UHGV virus genome: UHGV-0085244
Origin: a virus
Length of the DNA: 32,566 nt
Direction: 5' to 3' (one strand)
A model generated the notes under the pieces. That model was not told where the DNA came from. It saw only the letters and a program-made list of their open reading frames with translations, and did not search any database. Below are positions 16,390 through 27,639 of the stretch, piece after piece. Within the stretch, counting starts at the first letter, position 1. Each line of letters starts with the position of its first letter. Both the position numbers and the translations under genes were made by a program.

Positions 16390-17040
16390 TCAGCGGCTGT
16401 CATTGCGCAGTCTGCGCTCCAGCTGCTGTTTGTCTTTTTTCACGCCACAGCGGGGATCGAGCTGTAACGCATGGTTGAGATGATTAAGGGCGGACGCCGG
16501 ATTGCTTTCACTCAGGACAGCGCCAATCGCTTTATGCAGACGCGCCCGTGACTGGTCCGGCATATCCAGACCGTCTGTCAGCTCCAGCGTCTGCAGCAAC
16601 AGATCAGCATCAAAGCCGGTGGCGGCAAGCATTGCGCTCTGCGCGGCGTCTGCCATTTCCTCTGCCAGCACGGTCTGCACGTTGCGGTTACCCAGCGGCA
16701 TCACCCAGCCATGACGCAGGGCATGACGCCCGATCTCCAGCGCTCCGGCATAATCTCCGGCATCAATGCGCCACAGCATCACGTACATCAGCACGTCATC
16801 CTGTTGAGCGCCTCCGGCAGCCAGGACACCCTCTACCCAGGCGGCGTACTTCGGCAGCAGCTCCACCTTGATTTCCGCTTTTTTGACCGTGGACTGAACG
16901 CCCTTGAGACGGCGGCGGTCTTCCGCCAGTTGCAGCAGCATCAGGTCATAGCCCGATGCGTGGCGAACACTGCCGCCCTCGCGGGCGGCCTGTTCAGCCT
17001 GAACGCGCAGGCGATGCTGCCGTGCGGGACTCAGGCTCAT
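16390..17040 (-). CDS. M: Terminase small (endonuclease) subunit M
   Basis: 216-aa ORF, P2 gpM-like. Confidence 0.85.
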   Translation of the reverse strand: MSLSPARQHRLRVQAEQAAREGGSVRHASGYDLMLLQLAEDRRRLKGVQSTVKKAEIKVELLPKYAAWVEGVLAAGGAQQDDVLMYVMLWRIDAGDYAGALEIGRHALRHGWVMPLGNRNVQTVLAEEMADAAQSAMLAATGFDADLLLQTLELTDGLDMPDQSRARLHKAIGAVLSESNPASALNHLNHALQLDPRCGVKKDKQQLERRLRNDSR

Positions 17041-17043
17041 GGA

Positions 17044-18096
17044 TTACGCTCCTGTTTCGGCTGCGCTGAAGTCACCAATCTGGATGTTTTCCACCAGTGC
17101 AGCGCAGCGATAGTCCTCAACCACATAGGCTTCGTTAACGGATTCAAAATTTTCAATCCGGTCACGTTTCGGGTTGTCGATAACTGAACGGCGGCGGGTA
17201 TCTTCCTGCCAGTAGATGGACAGGTTATCCAGACGGGTGATCAGCAGCGCATTCGGCGGGAAGAACGGCGCACGCACCGCCTGCAGGCCACCCATGCGTT
17301 TCTGACTGATGATCATATCGGCAGCCAGTTTTTCACTGTTTTCCTGCTCTTTGTTGACCAGCGGGAAATACTTGTCAGACAGCAGTTCACGCCCGCAAAT
17401 CACCACCAGATCGTCATCGTCCTGGTAGACCACGTCGATAAGCTCATTGACCGCATCCATCACCACAGCGTCCAGGTTGGCATATTCGCCACCTTTCCCG
17501 ACTTTCACCGCACCCGGTGTGGTTTCGCCGCCCGTGGTGGTGCTGCCCATGACGTGATCCGGTGCATCCTCACGGATTTTCTGCAGCCAGCCTTTGTTCA
17601 CATCCTGCAGCAGCGGGTTTTCACTACGGTTGGAGGTTTTCGCACGCTTCACGCCGTTAAAGCCGATCATGATGCGGTCCAGTGCCTGACGTTTCACGAT
17701 GGCGTCACGGATACGCACCTGGAAATCCTGAAACTTCGCCCACAGGTCCAGCTTCGCGTAGGTCAGCACCGTGTCAAAGTTGGTCTGCTCGCATTTATAT
17801 TCCACATCGACCATCAGCGTCGGATCGACAGGTTCACGCTCTTTCGCGGTGGTATCAGTGGTTCCGGCAATGGTGCTGCCAACACCCAGCCCCAGCAGCT
17901 GACCGGACTGCTCAGTCACTGGCGTGACGTTAATCAGCGTCAGGAAAGCGGCGGACTGCTGGATCTGGTCTTCCAGCGTCTGCTGCACAGACGGCTCCAC
18001 AGTGAATTTGCTGGACAGTTCTTCAACTGCCACACCGTTCAGACGCGCCAGCTGCTGCAGGTAAGCGTTAAAAGCAAAGCGGGTATTCTTTTTCAT
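17044..18096 (-). CDS. N: Major capsid protein N
   Basis: 350-aa ORF, P2 gpN-like. Confidence 0.9.
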   Translation of the reverse strand: MKKNTRFAFNAYLQQLARLNGVAVEELSSKFTVEPSVQQTLEDQIQQSAAFLTLINVTPVTEQSGQLLGLGVGSTIAGTTDTTAKEREPVDPTLMVDVEYKCEQTNFDTVLTYAKLDLWAKFQDFQVRIRDAIVKRQALDRIMIGFNGVKRAKTSNRSENPLLQDVNKGWLQKIREDAPDHVMGSTTTGGETTPGAVKVGKGGEYANLDAVVMDAVNELIDVVYQDDDDLVVICGRELLSDKYFPLVNKEQENSEKLAADMIISQKRMGGLQAVRAPFFPPNALLITRLDNLSIYWQEDTRRRSVIDNPKRDRIENFESVNEAYVVEDYRCAALVENIQIGDFSAAETGA

Positions 18097-18112
18097 CGGG
18101 TTTTGTGCTCCA

Positions 18113-18946
18113 TCAGCAATTGGTCAGAGTGTCAGCGGGGGCGTTACCGCCTGTTGCACGCTGGCGGTAGTCCTGGCGGCTGTCTTCATGACTCAGCTTG
18201 TCCACCAGTTCGTTAAAGGCGGTTTGCTGTGCCTGCAGGGCAGTCTCCAGCTCAGACAGGCGTTCTTCCTGCTCAGACAGGGATTTTTCGGTGCGTGCGT
18301 TCAGGTTCTGCTGCTCAGTGGCGACCAGCTCCACGGCCTTATGCACATCAGAGAACCGGGCGTCATCGGACTGCTCTTTTTTGGTAAACAGCGCCGTGAC
18401 GCGGGCAAACAGGGACGGTTTGTCGTCCTGGATTTCTTCCAGTTCGATCACCGTTTCCTCTGCAGCGGTAAAGAGATTGGCAGGATTCTGCTTGCGGTTT
18501 GCCAGCGGGTTATGGGCTGCACTGGCGCTGAATGTCAGCATTTCCGTACCCAGACTGGCAGGGTCATCAGTGGCAGCCAGGCCGACCAGGTAGGCTTTGC
18601 CCGTATCAGCGAACTTCGGGCTGACTTCCATAGAGGTGAATAATTTCTGGCCTTTTTTCACCAGTTCCACCAGGGACTCCGTTGGCTCAACGTCGGCATA
18701 CAGCGCCATCTTGCCTGCCAGCGGACCTTCCGTGATTTCTTCAGCAAACAGCGCCGTCACCTTGCCGTAGCGGTTAAAGGTGCTGTCCGGTAGATAAGAC
18801 TTGATGTGCTCAAGGTTAATCAGCGCGGTATACACCGCCGGGTTGTAGCTGGCTGCCATCTGTTCCAGCCATTCACGCTGGATTTCGCGTCCGTCGGTGG
18901 TGGCACCTTCCACCCCGATGCGAAAACGCTTTGCTTTCACTGTCAT
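18113..18946 (-). CDS. O: Capsid scaffolding protein O
   Basis: 277-aa ORF, acidic with coiled-coil C-terminal half; P2 gpO position. Confidence 0.85.
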   Translation of the reverse strand: MTVKAKRFRIGVEGATTDGREIQREWLEQMAASYNPAVYTALINLEHIKSYLPDSTFNRYGKVTALFAEEITEGPLAGKMALYADVEPTESLVELVKKGQKLFTSMEVSPKFADTGKAYLVGLAATDDPASLGTEMLTFSASAAHNPLANRKQNPANLFTAAEETVIELEEIQDDKPSLFARVTALFTKKEQSDDARFSDVHKAVELVATEQQNLNARTEKSLSEQEERLSELETALQAQQTAFNELVDKLSHEDSRQDYRQRATGGNAPADTLTNC

Positions 18947-19088: not shown

Positions 19089-20855
19089 ATGAACACCACA
19101 CTGACACCCGCAGATCTCGATCCCCGTCGGCAGGCCATGCTGCTGTACTTTCAGGGATACCGCGTAGCCCGCATTGCTGAAATGCTGGGCGAGAAAGTTG
19201 CAACCGTTCACAGCTGGAAAAAACGCGACAAGTGGGGTGACTATGGGCCGCTGGATCAGATGCAGCTCACCACCGCCGCACGCTACTGCCAGCTCATTAT
19301 GAAGGAGCACAAAGAAGGGAAAGATTTCAAAGAGATTGACCTGCTGGCGCGCCAGTCGGAGCGCCACGCGCGGATCAGCAAGTTTAACAATGGCGGCAAC
19401 GAAGCCGACTTAAACCCTAACGTCGCCAACCGCAACAAAGGCCCGCGCCGTCAGCCGGAAAAGAATGTTTTCACCGATGAGCAGATTGAGAAGCTGGAAG
19501 AAATCTTCCATTCCTCCATGTTCAACTACCAGCGCCACTGGTGGGAAGCCGGAAAAGCCAACCGCATCCGCAACCTGCTGAAGTCACGCCAGATCGGCGC
19601 GACCTTTTACTTTGCCCGTGAAGCCCTGATTGACGCCCTGCTTACCGGACGTAACCAGATTTTCCTTTCCGCCAGTAAGGCACAGGCCCACGTCTTTAAA
19701 CAGTACATCATCGACTTCGCCAAAGAAGTGGAGGTGGAGCTGAAAGGCGATCCGATGGTGCTTCCCAACGGGGCCACTCTTTACTTCCTCGGCACCAATG
19801 CCCGCACGGCCCAGAGTTACCACGGCAACCTGTATCTGGATGAATATTTCTGGATACCGAAATTCCAGGAGCTGCGCAAAGTGGCTTCCGGTATGGCTAT
19901 TCACAAAAAATGGCGACAAACCTATTTTTCCACGCCATCCAGCCTGACCCACAGTGCTTATCCGTTCTGGTCCGGTGCACTGTTCAACCGTGGACGCAAC
20001 AAAGCCGACAAGGTGGACATCGACCTGTCCCATAGCAATCTGGCCCCCGGCCTGCTGTGCGCAGACGGGCAATACCGCCAGATAGTCACCGTGGAAGATG
20101 CGGTGCGCGGCGGCTGTAACCTGTTCGACCTTGACCAGTTGCGCATGGAGTACAGCCCGGACGAATACCAGAACCTGCTGATGTGCGAGTTCGTGGACGA
20201 TCTCGCGTCCGTGTTCCCGCTCAGCGAGCTGCAGGCGTGCATGGTGGACAGCTGGGAAGTCTGGACCGACTTTCATGCTCTGGCCCTGCGCCCGTTTGGC
20301 TGGCGCGAAGTGTGGATCGGTTATGACCCGGCAAAAGGTACGCAGAACGGCGACAGCGCCGGATGCGTGGTGGTGGCACCGCCAGCCGTGCCGGGCGGTA
20401 AGTTTCGCATTCTTGAGCGTCACCAGTGGCGCGGGATGGACTTCCGCGCCCAGGCTGACGCAATCAAAAAACTGACCGAGCAGTACAACGTGACCTACAT
20501 CGGCATCGACTCAACCGGCGTTGGTCACGGGGTTTACGAGAACGTGAAAGCGTTCTTTCCTGCCGTCCGGGAGTTTGTCTACAACCCCAACGTTAAAAAC
20601 GCCCTGGTACTCAAGGCCTACGACATTATCAGCCACCGCCGTCTGGAGTTTGACGCCGGACATACCGACATTGCGCAGTCATTTATGGCAATCCGTCGCA
20701 CCACCACCGCCAGTGGCAACCGCCCGACCTATGAAGCCAGCCGCAGCGAAGAAGCCAGCCACGCCGATCTGGCATGGGCAACGATGCACGCACTGTTTAA
20801 CGAACCGCTGCAGGGCGAATCCGCCAATACCAGCAATATTGTGGAGATTTTTTGA
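19089..20855 (+). CDS. P: Terminase large (ATPase) subunit P
   Basis: 588-aa ORF, P2 gpP-like; stop overlaps the Q start (TGATG). Confidence 0.9.
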   Translation: MNTTLTPADLDPRRQAMLLYFQGYRVARIAEMLGEKVATVHSWKKRDKWGDYGPLDQMQLTTAARYCQLIMKEHKEGKDFKEIDLLARQSERHARISKFNNGGNEADLNPNVANRNKGPRRQPEKNVFTDEQIEKLEEIFHSSMFNYQRHWWEAGKANRIRNLLKSRQIGATFYFAREALIDALLTGRNQIFLSASKAQAHVFKQYIIDFAKEVEVELKGDPMVLPNGATLYFLGTNARTAQSYHGNLYLDEYFWIPKFQELRKVASGMAIHKKWRQTYFSTPSSLTHSAYPFWSGALFNRGRNKADKVDIDLSHSNLAPGLLCADGQYRQIVTVEDAVRGGCNLFDLDQLRMEYSPDEYQNLLMCEFVDDLASVFPLSELQACMVDSWEVWTDFHALALRPFGWREVWIGYDPAKGTQNGDSAGCVVVAPPAVPGGKFRILERHQWRGMDFRAQADAIKKLTEQYNVTYIGIDSTGVGHGVYENVKAFFPAVREFVYNPNVKNALVLKAYDIISHRRLEFDAGHTDIAQSFMAIRRTTTASGNRPTYEASRSEEASHADLAWATMHALFNEPLQGESANTSNIVEIF

Positions 20856-21889
20856 TGGGAAAGAGTAAGAAGAACCGAGCTGCGGCGACGAAACAGATCC
20901 AGCTTAAAAGTCAAACTACAGCCGAAGCATTCAGCTTCGGCGATCCCGTTCCTGTTCTGGACCGCCGTGAACTGCTGGACTATGTGGAATGCGTACAGAT
21001 GGACCGTTGGTATGAGCCGCCCGTCAGCTTTGACGGACTGGCGCGCACCTTCCGCGCCGCCGTGCATCACAGTTCCCCGATTGCAGTAAAGTGCAACATT
21101 CTGACCAGTACCTATATCCCTCATCCGCTGCTCAGCCAGCAGGCTTTTTCGCGTTTTGTGCAGGACTATCTGGTATTTGGTAACGCCTACCTGGAGAAAC
21201 GCACGAACCGATTCGGTGAAGTTATCGCCCTTGAGCCTGCCCTGGCAAAATACACCCGACGTGGATTAGACCTGGATACCTACTGGTTTGTACAGTATGG
21301 CATGACCACGCAGCCCTATGAATTTACGCAGGGCAGCATCTTTCATCTGCTGGAGCCGGATATTAACCAGGAGATTTACGGGCTGCCAGGCTATCTCTCC
21401 GCCATCCCGTCAACCCTGCTCAACGAGTCCGCAACGCTGTTTCGCCGGAAGTATTACATCAACGGCAGCCACGCAGGTTTCATTATGTACATGACCGACG
21501 CAGCACAGAACCAGGAGGATGTGAACAATATCCGTCAGGCAATGAAAAGCGCCAAAGGACCGGGTAACTTCCGCAACCTGTTTATGTATTCGCCCAACGG
21601 CAAAAAGGACGGCATCCAGATCATCCCGTTATCAGAGGTTGCGGCGAAAGACGAGTTTCTTAACATCAAGAACGTTAGCCGCGATGACATGATGGCAGCG
21701 CACCGCGTGCCACCGCAGATGATGGGAATTATGCCGAGCAACGTTGGTGGGTTTGGAGACGTGGAAAAAGCTAGTCGAGTATTCGTTCGTAATGAATTGA
21801 TTCCACTTCAAAAAAGATTAATGGAATTAAATGAATGGCTTAATGACGAAATTATTCGTTTTGACGAATATAAATTAGGCGATGCTTGA
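20855..21889 (+). CDS. Q: Portal protein Q
   Basis: Track ORF 20852..21889 begins with TTG; ATG at 20855; P2 gpQ-like. Confidence 0.9.
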   Translation: MGKSKKNRAAATKQIQLKSQTTAEAFSFGDPVPVLDRRELLDYVECVQMDRWYEPPVSFDGLARTFRAAVHHSSPIAVKCNILTSTYIPHPLLSQQAFSRFVQDYLVFGNAYLEKRTNRFGEVIALEPALAKYTRRGLDLDTYWFVQYGMTTQPYEFTQGSIFHLLEPDINQEIYGLPGYLSAIPSTLLNESATLFRRKYYINGSHAGFIMYMTDAAQNQEDVNNIRQAMKSAKGPGNFRNLFMYSPNGKKDGIQIIPLSEVAAKDEFLNIKNVSRDDMMAAHRVPPQMMGIMPSNVGGFGDVEKASRVFVRNELIPLQKRLMELNEWLNDEIIRFDEYKLGDA

Positions 21890-21898
21890 TTAAAGCCT

Positions 21899-21932
21899 GT
21901 TTAAACTGGCTGTCGAAACAGCCAGTTTAAAC
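21899..21932. other. Perfect 15-bp-stem hairpin (4-nt loop) between convergent Q and the cargo operon; possible bidirectional terminator
   Basis: GTTTAAACTGGCTGT-CGAA-ACAGCCAGTTTAAAC; no flanking U-tract on either strand. Confidence 0.5.
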
Positions 21933-22775
21933 ACCGGCACCAATGAAATCGCCATATGAATCTTCTTCAAGGCTGATGTATTCCACCCTCCATTGATCCA
22001 TCCGCCTCAATGCATACAGGGAGAAATGAGTATCGGCAACAGCAATGCACGTATTCAATTCTATAAGCTCTGAATGTCCCAAGATTGGATCACCATAAAA
22101 CTTATAAAACAATGCCTTTAGATCAGAACAGGTTTGTTCAGCCGCCCCTCTGGCATCGGGGCCACCTTCAGTTGCATCATAAACAACATTGATAGAAAGC
22201 TCATATGGTATGCCTTCCTCAAGATCGTTAAATCTTTCTTCGCCCAAATCGAAAAAAACTCCGATCAAATGCTCTGCGTTTGTGGCGATAATGTCCGCAA
22301 CTTCTTTTTCGAAAATAAACTTTTTATCCTCGTCGTAAGCCCGCAAGCGCTCTTCAAACGAGTTAGGAAACGCTGGACGACCATACTTAGCTGCTAACCA
22401 TTGCTTAAGAGCTTGTTTCTCTTCTGTGCTAATGGAGAATGCCGGATCGTTTTCCTCACAACGGAAAGCTTCTTTAGAAATGATGACTTTTCTTTCATGC
22501 CGAAGCTCTACTGCGTTCTTCTTAGCACTTTCTGGGTTTTCAAAGCATAGATCGAGGATTCTCGGATGCTTAGCTCTTTTCATCTTGCTTGACCCCTTTT
22601 TCAAGGGGCCAAACATCAGTTCCACGTTTTTTTCAGAATTACTCTGTAAATCACAATCATGCGTTATAACTACAACTTTATGGTTCGTTTCATCAGGCTT
22701 CAGAAGTCCAAGTGAAACGGCATCATCATGTTTAAGAACATGCCCCTGACGCCATGATGTTCCTCGTACCAACAT
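21927..22775 (-). CDS. Hypothetical protein, third gene of the cargo operon; function unknown
   Basis: 282-aa ORF with ATG start 9 nt after the preceding stop; AT-rich; no P2/186 counterpart recognised. Confidence 0.7.
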   Translation of the reverse strand: MLVRGTSWRQGHVLKHDDAVSLGLLKPDETNHKVVVITHDCDLQSNSEKNVELMFGPLKKGSSKMKRAKHPRILDLCFENPESAKKNAVELRHERKVIISKEAFRCEENDPAFSISTEEKQALKQWLAAKYGRPAFPNSFEERLRAYDEDKKFIFEKEVADIIATNAEHLIGVFFDLGEERFNDLEEGIPYELSINVVYDATEGGPDARGAAEQTCSDLKALFYKFYGDPILGHSELIELNTCIAVADTHFSLYALRRMDQWRVEYISLEEDSYGDFIGAGV

Positions 22776-22784
22776 AAATGTGAT

Positions 22785-23447
22785 TTATTCCTCTACTGTT
22801 CTAGGAATTGAAATAGATGACTTCCAATCATCTGTCGGTTTCGCCTTGCTTGCTAAGTAATTGGTCGATTCAGCAGCTGCATTCATCGCTTTAGCTTCAT
22901 CAATCAGTACCTGAACTGGCTTGTTCCAATCCTCACCTTCTTTTATTAAGTCCATCAATGACCTACCATTGAATGCTTTCATTTTCACCAATAGCTTCGC
23001 ATCATTGAGTCCAGCTTTGGAAAAAGAGTCAGCAACATTACTGAGGTTGGTAATGAATTGGACTTTTGAAGCATCATCAGGCTGGTTCTCCCCTGACAAC
23101 CATTTATAGAGAGCCTGCCGAGTTATCCCCAAATCCTTAGCCAGTTCTGACATTGATGGAGACAGCACTTCTCGAATATTAGCCAAATGTTGGGCAACAT
23201 TCCTGACATCAACCTCAGGAGAAATTGCAGGCGTGTACGTTGACTCTATGGAATCAAATGCAAACTGAACCCTTGGCTGAACATACTGACGCCATTGCTT
23301 ATAAGCATTTACAGGGTATGAAGCCCCCGTACCAACTAATAGTAAAGATGCGGCGACAGCAACAACACCTGATACACATGAGCTTGACTGCGAATCTGGA
23401 GTATACCGATCTACAGAGCCTATGCTTCCAGTAGGAATTGCATACAT
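22785..23447 (-). CDS. XRE-family helix-turn-helix protein with N-terminal hydrophobic segment, second gene of the cargo operon
   Basis: HTH ...NVAQHLANIREVLSPSMSELAKDLGITRQALYKWLSGENQP; start placed at the ATG (MYAIPTG...) after a GGGGGTGA RBS; the track's longer form 22785..23555 would overlap the upstream gene by 89 nt; start uncertain. Confidence 0.65.
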   Translation of the reverse strand: MYAIPTGSIGSVDRYTPDSQSSSCVSGVVAVAASLLLVGTGASYPVNAYKQWRQYVQPRVQFAFDSIESTYTPAISPEVDVRNVAQHLANIREVLSPSMSELAKDLGITRQALYKWLSGENQPDDASKVQFITNLSNVADSFSKAGLNDAKLLVKMKAFNGRSLMDLIKEGEDWNKPVQVLIDEAKAMNAAAESTNYLASKAKPTDDWKSSISIPRTVEE

Positions 23448-23466
23448 TTTAGTCACCCCCGTTGTT

Positions 23467-24276
23467 TCAGTGCCATTTAGCACGGGCAAAATCTGAAACC
23501 ATGCCTTCAAATGCTTCTTTAACTTTACTATGCAACGAAAGAATCTGTTTTTCAATTAACTGCAAATCAGTTGACATGTTGCCTTCAACATAATGATCTG
23601 TATCAATTATTGCGTGCATACGATGTTCTGTATTACTAAATCTCGGCAGCGGCAGTAAACCATTAGGAATCATATCTGGCGGAAAACCTAGCTGACCATT
23701 CATCTTATGTATACGTGAAACCATAAATCCATTAGAGATCAGTGGCTCAACACATGTCTGATATACAGACTCTTGTATGGACTGTATTGGCGTCCATCCA
23801 AAATCAACACCATGAAGTTCCTTTACAAGATACTGCTCAATTGTTTCGCTTTTCTCAGGAAACACAGCATCCAAATATCGAAGCCCAATCCTGCTTACCA
23901 ACGATGGCTTAGCAAATTCAAGAACTTTGCTCAGACCAAGTATTAATGACGAGATGAAAGGTACATGATTATCATAATCTGTTGTATGGAACGTAATGAA
24001 ATCGTTGCCTAAAACAAAACCAGACCTTCTATCTGCATCAATCATCAACCAACTTGTCACAGGCTCAAATGAATGTACCGGTGGCTCATTGGGGTTTTTC
24101 ATTTCAAATTTCAGCTGAGTTGTATTGGAAACTTCAAATAAAGGAAATCCTTCAACTCTTAGCGCATCTTGTATGTCTGGAACATACTTACTCATTGCAG
24201 CTACTGGAGTAAACTTTACTTGCACCAATGCGTAGTAAACGGGCGCATTGGACATACGTTCGCTGTTAGTACTCAT
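23467..24276 (-). CDS. Hypothetical protein, first gene of the cargo operon; function unknown
   Basis: 269-aa ORF with AGGAGG RBS 5 nt before the ATG; N-terminus (SNAPVYYALVQVKF) faintly recalls an uncharacterised TIGR04255-type family, from memory and unverified. Confidence 0.7.
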   Translation of the reverse strand: MSTNSERMSNAPVYYALVQVKFTPVAAMSKYVPDIQDALRVEGFPLFEVSNTTQLKFEMKNPNEPPVHSFEPVTSWLMIDADRRSGFVLGNDFITFHTTDYDNHVPFISSLILGLSKVLEFAKPSLVSRIGLRYLDAVFPEKSETIEQYLVKELHGVDFGWTPIQSIQESVYQTCVEPLISNGFMVSRIHKMNGQLGFPPDMIPNGLLPLPRFSNTEHRMHAIIDTDHYVEGNMSTDLQLIEKQILSLHSKVKEAFEGMVSDFARAKWH

Positions 24277-24416
24277 GCCGCCCTCCTTGAAGTTGTTTCA
24301 TCTCATATCTCTCTATCTCACTAACTGTAGTTTACACATAGGTTGACACTTTCTCCATCATTAAGTTCACTATGACATCAATAGCCAAAACTCTTACATA
24401 ATCGCTTCGGCGCGCG

Positions 24417-24435
24417 CTCGTATCCCCGCCACGCC
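24417..24435 (-). other. Candidate cos site (cohesive-end sequence)
   Basis: Minus strand reads GGCGTGGCGGGGATACGAG; the first 13 nt match the 5' part of the P2/186 cohesive ends as I recall them; orientation is correct for a cos that reads toward Q. Confidence 0.5.
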
Positions 24436-24480
24436 TGCCCGCTTTATGTAGTGGTTTTCATGCACCTGCATGATCTACGC

Positions 24481-24504
24481 AAAAGCCCGCCAGTTCTGGC
24501 GGGC
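24481..24504 (-). terminator. Rho-independent terminator after the DinI-like gene
   Basis: Stem GCCCGCCAG / CTGGCGGGC with a 3-nt loop, followed on the minus strand by TTTT. Confidence 0.6.
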
Positions 24505-24639
24505 CTTAGCAAAAACGATCCTCAAACGATCATGCGATCTCATGCGGCATAGACATGCACTACAGAGCTAACGCCTCGCAAGGGCTCGTTGTTCAACCTT
24601 GCTGACGCCAGAAACAAGTTCAGACGCCAGCAACGTTTC

Positions 24640-24873
24640 TTAATGCAGCCAGCTGTCGTCTTCCCACACCTTCTGCATAATTTTCATCACTTGTTTTCTT
24701 TCTTCGTCCAGTTGCAGTCCGGTCAGTTCCACACCGTTAGAGCTACCTTTGCGGATACGAATTACCGTTTTGGGATACAGGGGGCGCAGATTGCGGTAAA
24801 GCTCGGATTCAAGGGCGTCCAGTGTAGACTGGCTAATCTTCTGCTCTTTATCGATCATTATTTCAATGCGCAT
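24640..24873 (-). CDS. DinI-family protein (Tum-like, possible SOS-dependent antirepressor component)
   Basis: MRIEIMIDKEQKISQSTLDALESELYRNLRPLYPKTVIRIRKGSSNGVELTGL...WEDDSWLH resembles DinI; GAGGTGA RBS before the ATG at 24873 (track ORF 24640..24945). Confidence 0.75.
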   Translation of the reverse strand: MRIEIMIDKEQKISQSTLDALESELYRNLRPLYPKTVIRIRKGSSNGVELTGLQLDEERKQVMKIMQKVWEDDSWLH

Positions 24874-24883
24874 AAAAGTCACC

Positions 24884-25072
24884 TCAGCTGATGACATCCA
24901 TTGAGCGGTTGTATTCATGGGTTCTGATTTTTGCCATGAGTTCATCTGTCAGTTCAGAAACCCACTGCAGGGCCAGCCCCTTCTCTTCATCACTACACTC
25001 ACTAGCCGCTACAAGCTTAAGAAAAAAATCAATGCGCTGGAGCTTCAAAGACTCCAAAAAATAGTCCTGCAT
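24884..25072 (-). CDS. Small hypothetical protein, first gene of the LexA-controlled operon
   Basis: 62-aa ORF with AGGAGG RBS, immediately downstream of the LexA box and ending just before the DinI-like gene RBS. Confidence 0.5.
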   Translation of the reverse strand: MQDYFLESLKLQRIDFFLKLVAASECSDEEKGLALQWVSELTDELMAKIRTHEYNRSMDVIS

Positions 25073-25224: not shown

Positions 25225-27639
25225 TTAATACAGATCCCGCCACTTATCATCTTCCTGCAAACGCTGGTTCCGATAGAAGATACGCAGGCCTGCTCCTGAC
25301 GGAATACTGCCACCGCGAAGGAGTAAATCGACCTCTTTCTCGCTTCCATCAAATCCTCTGGACTTCAGTTCATAGACGAGCTGCTGTCGCTGATGATCTG
25401 TAATTCGCTGTTTGTAGTCTCTACGCCGTTTCGGTTTCACCAGGCGTAACCTTGCAGCCAGTTCCCGGCGCTCTTTTTTGTTCATACTGTGCAGGTAATC
25501 GTGCAATTCCTTGTCATCCATGCAGGTGATATCCGTTCTGGTATCCCCATCAGCTGATTTGTCTTTCCCTTGTTGGTACAAATTTTCAGCAAGGGGACAG
25601 TTATTGCCACGAGTCCAAGGGGCGCAAGCGCCCTGGTCGGCTGCCGCCTCCTGAACGTCAACGGCCTTACGAACCATTTTCCACTTCACTACATGAGTGC
25701 AGATCTTGCCCTCTGCAATGGGTGACCAGATGCCATAAATACGAATACCGTGATCGCCATAGGCGGTTGGCTCTTCGTTGATTTCATAAGCGGTTCTGAT
25801 GAGGTGATATTTGCGGGGAACCAGTACGCCGCCCTGCTTCATGATGTAGGTGGCAAAACAACCAGCATCAGCAGCAGCCAGAATGGCATCAAGACGCGGG
25901 TTATCCAGTACCGGCGCACCTGCTTTTTTGTCACCCTGTTGCCTTGCCGCCTGACCAGCCAGCAAGCGAAGTTCACGGTAAGCCTGACGTCCCGGAATAC
26001 CAAAGAAGCGGAATTGCTGAACACGATGCAGAGACGCCCAGGCATTAACGTATTCAGCGTTATCACGCAGGGATTTACCCGTTTCCTTGCTGATCTCGCC
26101 AGCCAGACCACGCCCGTCAATGTTCTTACTGATGTATTTCGCGATGTAGCTTGTCGGCGTTCCTTTGCGCGGGTTTATCAGCTCAGATTTAAAGCGTGGA
26201 CCAGTGTTATTACCCAGTTCCTCGCGGTCTTCACGGATGGCAAACTTACGCAACAATGCAGTAATGGCGCGGCGGTCTTTTTTGCGCATGAAACACAACA
26301 GGTGCCAGTGAACTGTACCGTCATGATGCGGCTCAGCCACCCGCACGCCATACCAGCGCAACCCGGCTTTGTGCATCGCCTTACGAAATGCAGCAAACAT
26401 GCCGACCAGATAATCGCTGCTTTGTCTTACCGTCGCATTTGTCCAGGTTGGGTTTGGTCTGCCGTTATTGAGCGTGGAATGGAAACGTGACGGACAGGTA
26501 ATGGTGTAGAAAACGGCGCAGTCACCGCGCATTTCCGCGATAAGCTCCAGACCTTTAACACAGGCCATCATCTCATTGCGGCGGTGCGCCGGGTTGCTGC
26601 TGCTGGCGTTTACCACGTCTTCCATATCCAGCGTGTCGCCCTCTTCGTTCACCAGTTCATGAGAACGGAAAAACTCCAGTGACTTGCGGCGCTGCTCACG
26701 TTTATGCATCACGGCTTCATAGCTGACATAGGGAGATGCTTTTTTGCTGACCAGGCAGACAGCACGCAACTGCTCTTCCCGCCATTCGCAACGCATTTTC
26801 CATAATTTCCGGTACCACCAGTCGGCGCACAACATACGCGCCAGCGAACCCGGAATGAGTTCATAGGGCACGGGTTTACGGCGGTTTCTTTTCCGACGGA
26901 GTTGCTCAAACGCAGGCGGGATGACATCCAGACGCAGGGTTTCCGCTGCCACCTTTTCCCATGTCTTGCGGATTTCTTCTGGCTTAACGTCATCGGTGGC
27001 ATACAAATCACCACAAGCTGCATCAAGGCACATGCTCATATGCGCAGCGACAAGGGTAGACAGGCGTTTCACCTGATCCTGACTCATTTCAGGCAGAATC
27101 AGCAGGCCGTCCAGCCCTACATGGCTTGCCATAAAACGAAAAGATGCAGATAGCTGGCTGTCGCGTACATGCTCCAGTCGTTCCAGACATGGCTTAATCG
27201 TCTCACGTAAATAGCGGGAATAAGCCTTTGGCCTGCCCAGGCTGCTGAAGTATTCAATACGTTGCATCAGCGGCTTGCTGATATGGGAGGGCTGGGCGCT
27301 GACGTCTACCAGAATGACCATGTCCGGGTTAAAACGCTGCTGCTCATGCGCCAACTTTGCCCGGCTAATGAGCTTATCCTGCTCTATTTCGCGTTGGACA
27401 GGATCACGGGATTCATTAAAGAAATAACGCTCCCAGACCTGATCACTCAGTGCCTCGCGGCGCAGTTGTTCCTGCTCGTTATCGGCAGCGTACAGAGTGA
27501 TCAGGTTTGAAAGCGCAGAAACCGGCGCAACTTCCGCCGGGTCCAGATAAGGGTTAATGGCCTTTTTCGGGCTGTTCCATGAGAACGATGCGGCAGCCTC
27601 TTTAAAGCCGCAGCAGTTGCTCATATCGGCATGGCTCAT
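25225..27639 (-). CDS. A: Replication initiation protein A (rolling-circle nicking endonuclease)
   Basis: 804-aa ORF with HWHLL (HUH-like) and YIAKYISK tyrosine motifs; P2 gpA-like. Confidence 0.9.

Follow-up and report, generated by a model that had tools for sequence, protein, structure and literature searches.

A three-gene cargo cassette at the cos-proximal end of a P2-like prophage and its 282-aa candidate effector with a predicted MazF-like domain

The cargo locus and its setting

The window, by which we mean the whole 32,566-nt stretch of DNA analysed here, is a P2-like prophage whose orientation is reversed relative to the P2 map. The main features of the region around its cargo genes are listed below.

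16390-18946, minus strand: genes for the terminase endonuclease subunit (gpM-like), capsid and scaffold
19089-20855, plus strand: large terminase
20852-21889, plus strand: portal gene Q, which converges on the cargo operon (the E. coli relative is annotated 'phage portal protein')
21898-21933: perfect 16-bp hairpin between the convergent Q and cargo genes, containing the cargo stop codon
21927-22775, minus strand: 282-aa protein, third and last cassette gene, ATG start and TAA stop (ORF call and homologues)
22785-23447, minus strand: 220-aa XRE-type HTH protein, middle gene (HTH_3, E 6.6e-5; RefSeq annotates 220 aa)
23467-24276, minus strand: 269-aa TIGR04255 family protein, first cassette gene (E 2.5e-54), proposed sensor or enzymatic partner
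24301-24323: 8-nt tandem repeat, 2.8 imperfect copies, in the leader, immediately before the TIGR04255 start
24417-24435, minus strand: cos core GGCGTGGCGGGGATACGAG, which sets the cassette between cos and Q
~24480-24510: G+C-rich, terminator-like stem-loop with a T-run, GGCCCGCCAGAACTGGCGGGCTTTT, after the DinI-like gene
24640-25072, minus strand: DinI-like gene (PF06183, E 1.3e-22) and a 62-aa ORF, between gpA and cos
25225-27639, minus strand: replication endonuclease gpA

Read from gpA, the order is A, the 62-aa ORF, the DinI-like gene, cos, the three cargo genes and Q. The exact P2 cos 19-mer is absent from the stretch, which carries the 186/P4-like variant GGCGTGGCGGGGATACGAG instead; this string is also found in pFR109, a cloned cos-proximal sequence, and is listed alongside related P4 and P2 cos strings (Table S2 of Rousset et al. 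2022, PMC9122126). With cos at 24417-24435, the cassette therefore lies on the Q side of cos, at the very end of the packaged genome that is nearest Q, and the DinI-like gene and gpA are on the opposite side. The trio has a G+C content of ~0.40, lower than the ~0.54 of the phage backbone.

The cassette is carried by 18 of 5426 complete E. coli genomes (~96.5% identity), and the adjacent end of Q is common to 117 of the 5426. One E. coli copy spans 1006785-1009335 of NZ_CP027462.1. Its locus lies between replication gene A and portal gene Q, beside cos, and varies among related prophages, as is characteristic of the cos-proximal gpA-gpQ hotspot, the site of old/tin and of numerous further defence systems (Rousset et al. 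2022, PMC9122126, section 10). The trio corresponds to system 59 of that study, labelled 'HTH_31' with 69 occurrences and '1 TM in protein 2' (Table S5B, PMC9122126), which was catalogued yet falls outside the systems that the authors cloned and tested. We considered whether the trio might be the validated Rst_3HP ('hp + hp + hp') of the same study and rejected this, the three proteins being unrelated.

The initial annotation had called an ORF for a 282-aa protein at 21927-22775, and it is found exactly there, on the minus strand, from ATG to TAA. It encodes a genuine conserved cargo gene. The cassette and its E. coli copy are ~96.5% identical in nucleotide sequence, with 17 synonymous and 7 non-synonymous codon differences in this gene, and homologues of ~280 aa are found in many phyla at identities down to ~27%. 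We regard the ORF as coding because this substitution pattern and this deep conservation are typical of a coding gene, and both stand against a spurious ORF. Nor does it behave like an ordinary phage structural, lysis or housekeeping gene: there are zero core-family matches, the gene is missing from most P2-like prophages (18 of the 5426 E. coli genomes carry it) and it also occurs in non-phage chromosomal contexts across phyla. These two readings are for practical purposes refuted. The gene had been described as cargo and not phage core, a description that holds: a family match to a known housekeeping or virion protein was looked for and none was found, and the only PHROGs match is to phrog_34320, whose function is not known.

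Q and the cargo gene are 37 nt apart, with a hairpin between them. Its arms (21898-21913 and 21918-21933) are 16 nt each and 100% complementary, and its 4-nt loop reads UUCG on the cargo transcript. A 71-nt RNA around the hairpin folds at -30.1 kcal/mol, compared with -13.1 +/- 2.7 for 200 shuffles (z = -6.3), and 0 of the 200 shuffles fold as well, a difference far larger than chance would give. A perfect hairpin had been reported at 21899-21932; it is indeed perfect, and its arms are one base pair longer than described. The cargo stop codon (21927-21929) was correctly placed in the 3' arm, 21918-21933, if plus-strand coordinates are used; on the cargo mRNA this is the 5' arm. Eight nucleotides separate the Q stop (21887-21889) from the opposite side of the stem.

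Among E. coli P2-like prophages, the hairpin is common to only the 18 cassette carriers. In cassette-free E. coli genomes that have the Q end, similarity ends at or before window position 21877, and the hairpin therefore lies on the cassette side of the junction. It is identical in the Serratia sp. L9 locus and has a single loop base changed in a second related locus (L001). Sister enterobacterial P2-like cassettes have different strong hairpins 6-14 nt past the stop, some of them with T-runs. Here, only UUU follows the stem on either strand; a terminator scan that requires 5 T in 8 did not list the hairpin, and no Rfam family matches the region. Judged by its sequence, it does not appear to be a textbook intrinsic terminator, because it is not followed by a proper U-tract. 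Our preferred reading is that the hairpin forms the 3' end of the cargo operon and separates its transcripts from the convergent ones of Q; it plausibly acts by RNA stabilisation or weak bidirectional termination. The earlier suggestion that it terminates or stabilises the cargo transcript is thus plausible in view of the sister hairpins and the cassette-only distribution, although the U-tract of a terminator is wanting.

The prophage of Serratia sp. L9 (NZ_CP192591.1, L006 6850-8200) is a remnant. An IS256-type element (Transposase_mut) cuts it ~20 nt into the 3' end of Q, and a different integrase and a CbtA/CbeA island lie beyond the element; the trio and the hairpin persist. We dropped this genome as proof that the hairpin travels with the cassette, since the insertion sequence truncates the prophage just past the hairpin; the comparison among E. 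coli prophages supports that point instead.

A conserved three-gene cassette

The cassette measures 2.35 kb (21927 to 24276), or about 2.5 kb with its leader. A 19-nt gap separates the TIGR04255 stop (23467) from the HTH ATG (23447), and a 9-nt gap separates the HTH stop (22785) from the ATG of the 282-aa protein (22775). This layout, with all three genes on one strand as a unit between A/cos and Q, is consistent with the view that the 282-aa gene is the last gene of a cargo operon.

The middle protein has weak matches to antitoxin-type HTH families and a conserved C-terminal tail (DDW..SIP), and we propose that it is a repressor or antitoxin. In PADLOC-DB v2.0.0, it finds just weak generic HTH matches, and there are 0 families for the TIGR04255 protein and 0 for the 282-aa protein, the models including Rst_3HP, the PD-T4/T7/Lambda systems and the PDC candidates. 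In three Arenicellales metagenome-assembled genomes (MAGs), the TIGR04255 and HTH proteins are fused in one ORF of 421-434 aa (L073 4709-5971; L081 and L083 4679-5980). These fusions argue that both proteins work as one unit.

Ahead of the HTH, residues ~24-42 of the middle protein form a hydrophobic segment rich in Ala and Gly (Kyte-Doolittle 2.0 over 19 residues). Comparable segments, at 1.6 or above, are found in 49 of 82 sequences, and the fused ORFs are without the hydrophobic N-terminal segment of the stand-alone protein. The segment is a putative membrane tag, possibly the feature recorded as '1 TM in protein 2' (Table S5B, PMC9122126).

The 8-nt repeat in the leader also differs between cassettes. 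In Serratia sp. L9, whose cassette is 99.4% identical, it is present in 7.1 perfect copies (TAGTGAGA, L006 4420-4476). The difference could reflect slipped-strand variation, or the repeats could be operator sites.

The three genes are tightly linked well beyond the P2-like prophages. All three are present in 84 of 84 assessable related loci, which span Proteobacteria, Nitrospirae, Chloroflexota, Verrucomicrobia, Acidobacteria, Actinobacteria, Chlamydiae and others, and in 82 of them the genes sit side by side on a single strand, always in this order. (The loci were scanned with the closer of our two alignments of the 282-aa family, the diverse one being too variable.) In the two other loci, both from chlamydial MAGs (L058 1733-6000 and L085 3688-6024), insertion sequences lie exactly between the HTH and 282-aa genes and uncouple the latter from the operon; in one case this is an IS66 that has a group II intron, in the other an IS607-like element with a resolvase and a large ORF. 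The layout is kept at 27-33% identity to the 282-aa protein, and the partners of members at ~27% identity have diverged along with it, to 33% and 28% identity. Frameshifts were seen once in the 282-aa gene and once in the TIGR04255 gene, too few to be read as a sign of toxicity.

While the layout of the trio is constant, the genes that flank it vary, and for this reason we consider the trio a mobile, self-contained three-gene module of variable regions. A distant trio is found on the K. pneumoniae plasmid pVA126-339 (a 339-kb record; L090 4558-6822), beside tape-measure and chromosomal-type genes. Another lies in a 208-kb record filed as Acinetobacter phage MD-2021a (L091 3639-5786), where its neighbours encode a DGQHR-domain protein and a methyltransferase. 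Neighbours of other relatives include BrxR-WYL with an SNF2/NOV_C helicase; AbiEi/AbiEii, Vsr and MazE; and type I methyltransferases, AbiEii, WYL, Fic, integrases, resolvases and transposases. RES-Xre is a further neighbour. The cassette thus sits in variable regions with a flavour of mobile elements and defence, a signal that is qualitative only; ordinary metabolic and housekeeping genes are intermixed with these neighbours.

Predicted fold and conserved residues of the 282-aa protein

The family to which the 282-aa protein belongs is large and consistently anonymous. An exhaustive HMM search (E <= 1e-3) returned 1949 cluster representatives at 50% identity, 293 homologues are word-indexed, and nearly all of the full-length matches listed are ~260-300 aa long. 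Every naming source calls them hypothetical. The protein itself has zero matches to Pfam, NCBIfam and PADLOC models, a sequence search of the PDB came back empty, and no Pfam family is shared among 52 diverse members at E <= 0.01 or at E <= 10. Among the 120 matches listed in a profile search with the diverse alignment, there were solely ~280-aa 'hypothetical' proteins devoid of Pfam domains, and none was a fused or annotated relative. Literature searches on TIGR04255, on the RefSeq accessions of the family and on MazF-like three-gene systems found no relevant publication. The initial annotation had proposed remote homology searches and structure prediction. The profiles gave no usable family, and the structure prediction did give a fold, similar to MazF, Kid and ToxN in the N-terminal domain.

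An AlphaFold2 model built from 34 sequences has a mean pLDDT of 80.6 and a pTM of 0.54, and consists of two well-predicted domains followed by a conserved C-terminal tail of low confidence. The parts of the protein correspond to the following positions.

22383-22775, minus strand: N-terminal domain, residues ~1-131, predicted beta-rich barrel with a long C-terminal helix, MazF/Kid/CcdB/ToxN-like fold
22650-22661, minus strand: codons of H39-D40-C41-D42, an invariant motif that directly follows the strand VVVIT
21996-22313, minus strand: C-terminal alpha/beta domain, residues ~155-260, predicted minimal-nucleotidyltransferase/ferredoxin-like topology, holding the invariant C243
21930-21995, minus strand: C-terminal tail, residues 261-282, with conserved W262, S268 and L269 ('DQWRVEYISL')

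The top Foldseek matches are almost exclusively MazF chains, mostly with a probability of 0.9-1.0, a TM score normalised to the target of 0.5-0.6 and E values of 3e-3 to 5e-2. In residues 1-131, the elements are arranged as a strand, a helix, a strand, a short helix, four strands and a long helix, an order that agrees with the secondary-structure layout of MazF. We therefore judge the N-terminal domain to be structurally closest to the MazF/Kid/ToxN toxins, at a level of support that is moderate and not strong, and the protein belongs to a new sequence family on a probable MazF-like scaffold.

H39-D40-C41-D42 is invariant in 52 of 52 diverse members (27-79% identity). Across the same alignment Q10, W126, L127, R133 and C243 are also invariant, and W8, G11, E48, E52, R72 and L74 are nearly so. 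Where the earlier note had found no motif to name, H39-D40-C41-D42 and E48/E52/R72 can now be named. E. coli MazF has a catalytic Arg before its second strand (R29) and T52 at the end of its third. Compared by secondary-structure register alone, R29 would correspond to position 33, just before the strand VVVIT, where the diverse members have I, V, K, R, L or A, so that there is no conserved basic counterpart. H39, D40, C41 and D42, with E48, E52 and R72, appear from the alignment to stand in for the MazF catalytic residues. A His/Asp/Cys/Asp plus Glu/Glu/Arg cluster on a barrel suggests catalysis on nucleic acid, possibly metal-dependent and in this unlike MazF. Alternatively, H39, C41 and C243 could form a structural metal site. 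As the four acidic residues suggest metal-dependent chemistry or a structural metal site, cleavage of RNA is only a guess.

The MazF fold also takes in CcdB, which is not a nuclease, and the N-terminal domain might likewise bind to a protein of the host or the phage, gyrase or a replication factor for example, and poison it with no cleavage involved. We think this improbable, since the H-D-C-D motif with two Glu and an Arg resembles a catalytic or metal site more than a binding surface, and MazF chains rank above CcdB in both structure searches.

The topology of the C-terminal domain recalls minimal nucleotidyltransferases (MNT), and the residues do not. D176 is frequent, and the acid at position 192 varies across the alignment. 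The hG[GS] turn and DxD carboxylates that mark the MNT of HEPN-MNT, HI0073 and AbiEii are unconserved here, so nucleotidyl transfer is unlikely, and we dropped an active nucleotidyltransferase as a candidate for this domain. No NTPase signature was found in the protein. The label given to it at the outset, 'candidate effector (nuclease, NTPase or other)', accordingly survives in its effector part, which the MazF/Kid/ToxN-like N-terminal ~130 residues favour, and loses the NTPase. The tail has a pLDDT below 50 at residues 261-271 and 274-282; being conserved, it may be a segment that docks a partner.

Possible roles of the module

A first comparison is with MazF and Kid (PemK), which give the best structural matches for residues ~1-130 and share the barrel, the short helix after the second strand and the long C-terminal helix. 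As in toxin-antitoxin loci, the 282-aa gene lies directly downstream of the gene for a small DNA-binding protein. MazF is a single-domain protein of ~110 aa, whereas the protein described here has 282 aa and two domains. It has no sequence-profile match to PF02452 and relatives (52 members, E <= 10), and in place of a conserved catalytic Arg, of which no counterpart was found, its family has the HDCD/E/E/R set. In place of MazE (AbrB type), the protein encoded upstream is of the XRE-HTH kind and has a hydrophobic segment; the trio also has an obligatory third gene. As a member of the MazF/PemK family, the protein would therefore qualify by its predicted barrel with a C-terminal helix, a moderate assignment, and not by profile or as a single-domain toxin paired with MazE/Kis.

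The antitoxin that neutralises ToxN, AbiQ and CptN is a repeated RNA, encoded immediately before the toxin gene. The 282-aa gene instead starts 9 nt after a protein gene and has no sequence similarity to these toxins; no tandem-repeat antitoxin RNA was found beside it, the only tandem repeats being at the hairpin and upstream of the first cassette gene. MqsRAC, CmdTAC and HipBST are each encoded by a co-transcribed set of three genes, of which one product is a toxin and another an HTH or antitoxin component, and some tripartite modules of this kind are prophage-borne and active in phage defence. Their components are unrelated to the trio. Other cargo of the gpA-gpQ hotspot (old/tin, Rst_3HP, DUF4238, DprA-PRTase; Rousset et al. 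2022) shares with the trio the cos-adjacent locus and the form of a compact, self-contained unit that is exchanged among prophages which are otherwise alike, and differs in its proteins.

An HTH gene upstream of a MazF-fold gene, an obligate and fusible third partner, the hotspot location and the neighbours together lead us to read the 282-aa protein as an effector. Our leading proposal, which we put forward tentatively and at somewhat less than even confidence, is that it is the effector-type terminal component of an obligate three-gene, toxin-antitoxin-like or abortive-infection anti-phage module. Such a module would run as a tripartite toxin-antitoxin or abortive-infection system. The HTH protein would repress the operon, hold the effector inactive, or both, and the TIGR04255 protein would sense infection or modify a partner. 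Once freed, the 282-aa effector would use the acidic/His cluster of its MazF-like scaffold to attack nucleic acid, RNA being the likeliest target, and so halt the growth of the infected cell. The hairpin would end the cargo transcript, stabilise it, or both, and insulate it from the convergent late gene Q.

The roles of the first and third proteins might also be exchanged. The TIGR04255 protein has a sheet like those of guanidino kinases and glutamine synthetase, and it could be the catalytic effector, a kinase or ligase, with the 282-aa protein as a sensor, adaptor or inhibitor whose MazF/CcdB-like barrel serves for binding only. This exchange of roles is the main rival reading, and we consider it unlikely. 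A second alternative keeps the 282-aa protein as a toxin and sees in the cassette a module for addiction or regulation that would serve to maintain the prophage or island, or to exclude close relatives only, and would play no part in general phage defence. The toxin-antitoxin-like gene order and the resemblance of the HTH protein to antitoxins agree with it, as do the presence of the cassette on large plasmids and at prophage ends and the two loci in which an insertion sequence lies exactly between the HTH and 282-aa genes, suggesting that the gene is costly. Restriction-modification, Abi and BREX-regulator genes beside the cassette in unrelated genomes point instead to defence, and we rate addiction as rather improbable. 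Addiction and anti-phage roles are compatible, and one need not exclude the other.

The anti-phage proposal can be taken further. The TIGR04255-HTH-'HDCD' trio could be an unrecognised phylum-spanning anti-phage system in which TIGR04255, as an enzyme of the guanidino-kinase/ligase-like type that is tethered to an HTH protein at the membrane, would sense infection, modify or release a partner and thereby unleash a novel class of metal-dependent nuclease built on a MazF barrel. This extension is speculative and has, in our view, a small chance of being correct. To our knowledge, metal-dependent nuclease chemistry has not been described for the MazF fold.

The cassette is compact, present in sequenced E. 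coli strains and listed with coordinates in the published hotspot table, and it can therefore be cloned and tested directly. The 282-aa protein represents a family of 1949 clusters over many bacterial phyla, for which we found no characterised member in the literature. If the module defends against phage, it would add a new system to the defence catalogue, give the TIGR04255 family its first function and provide an example of a MazF scaffold with a different active site.
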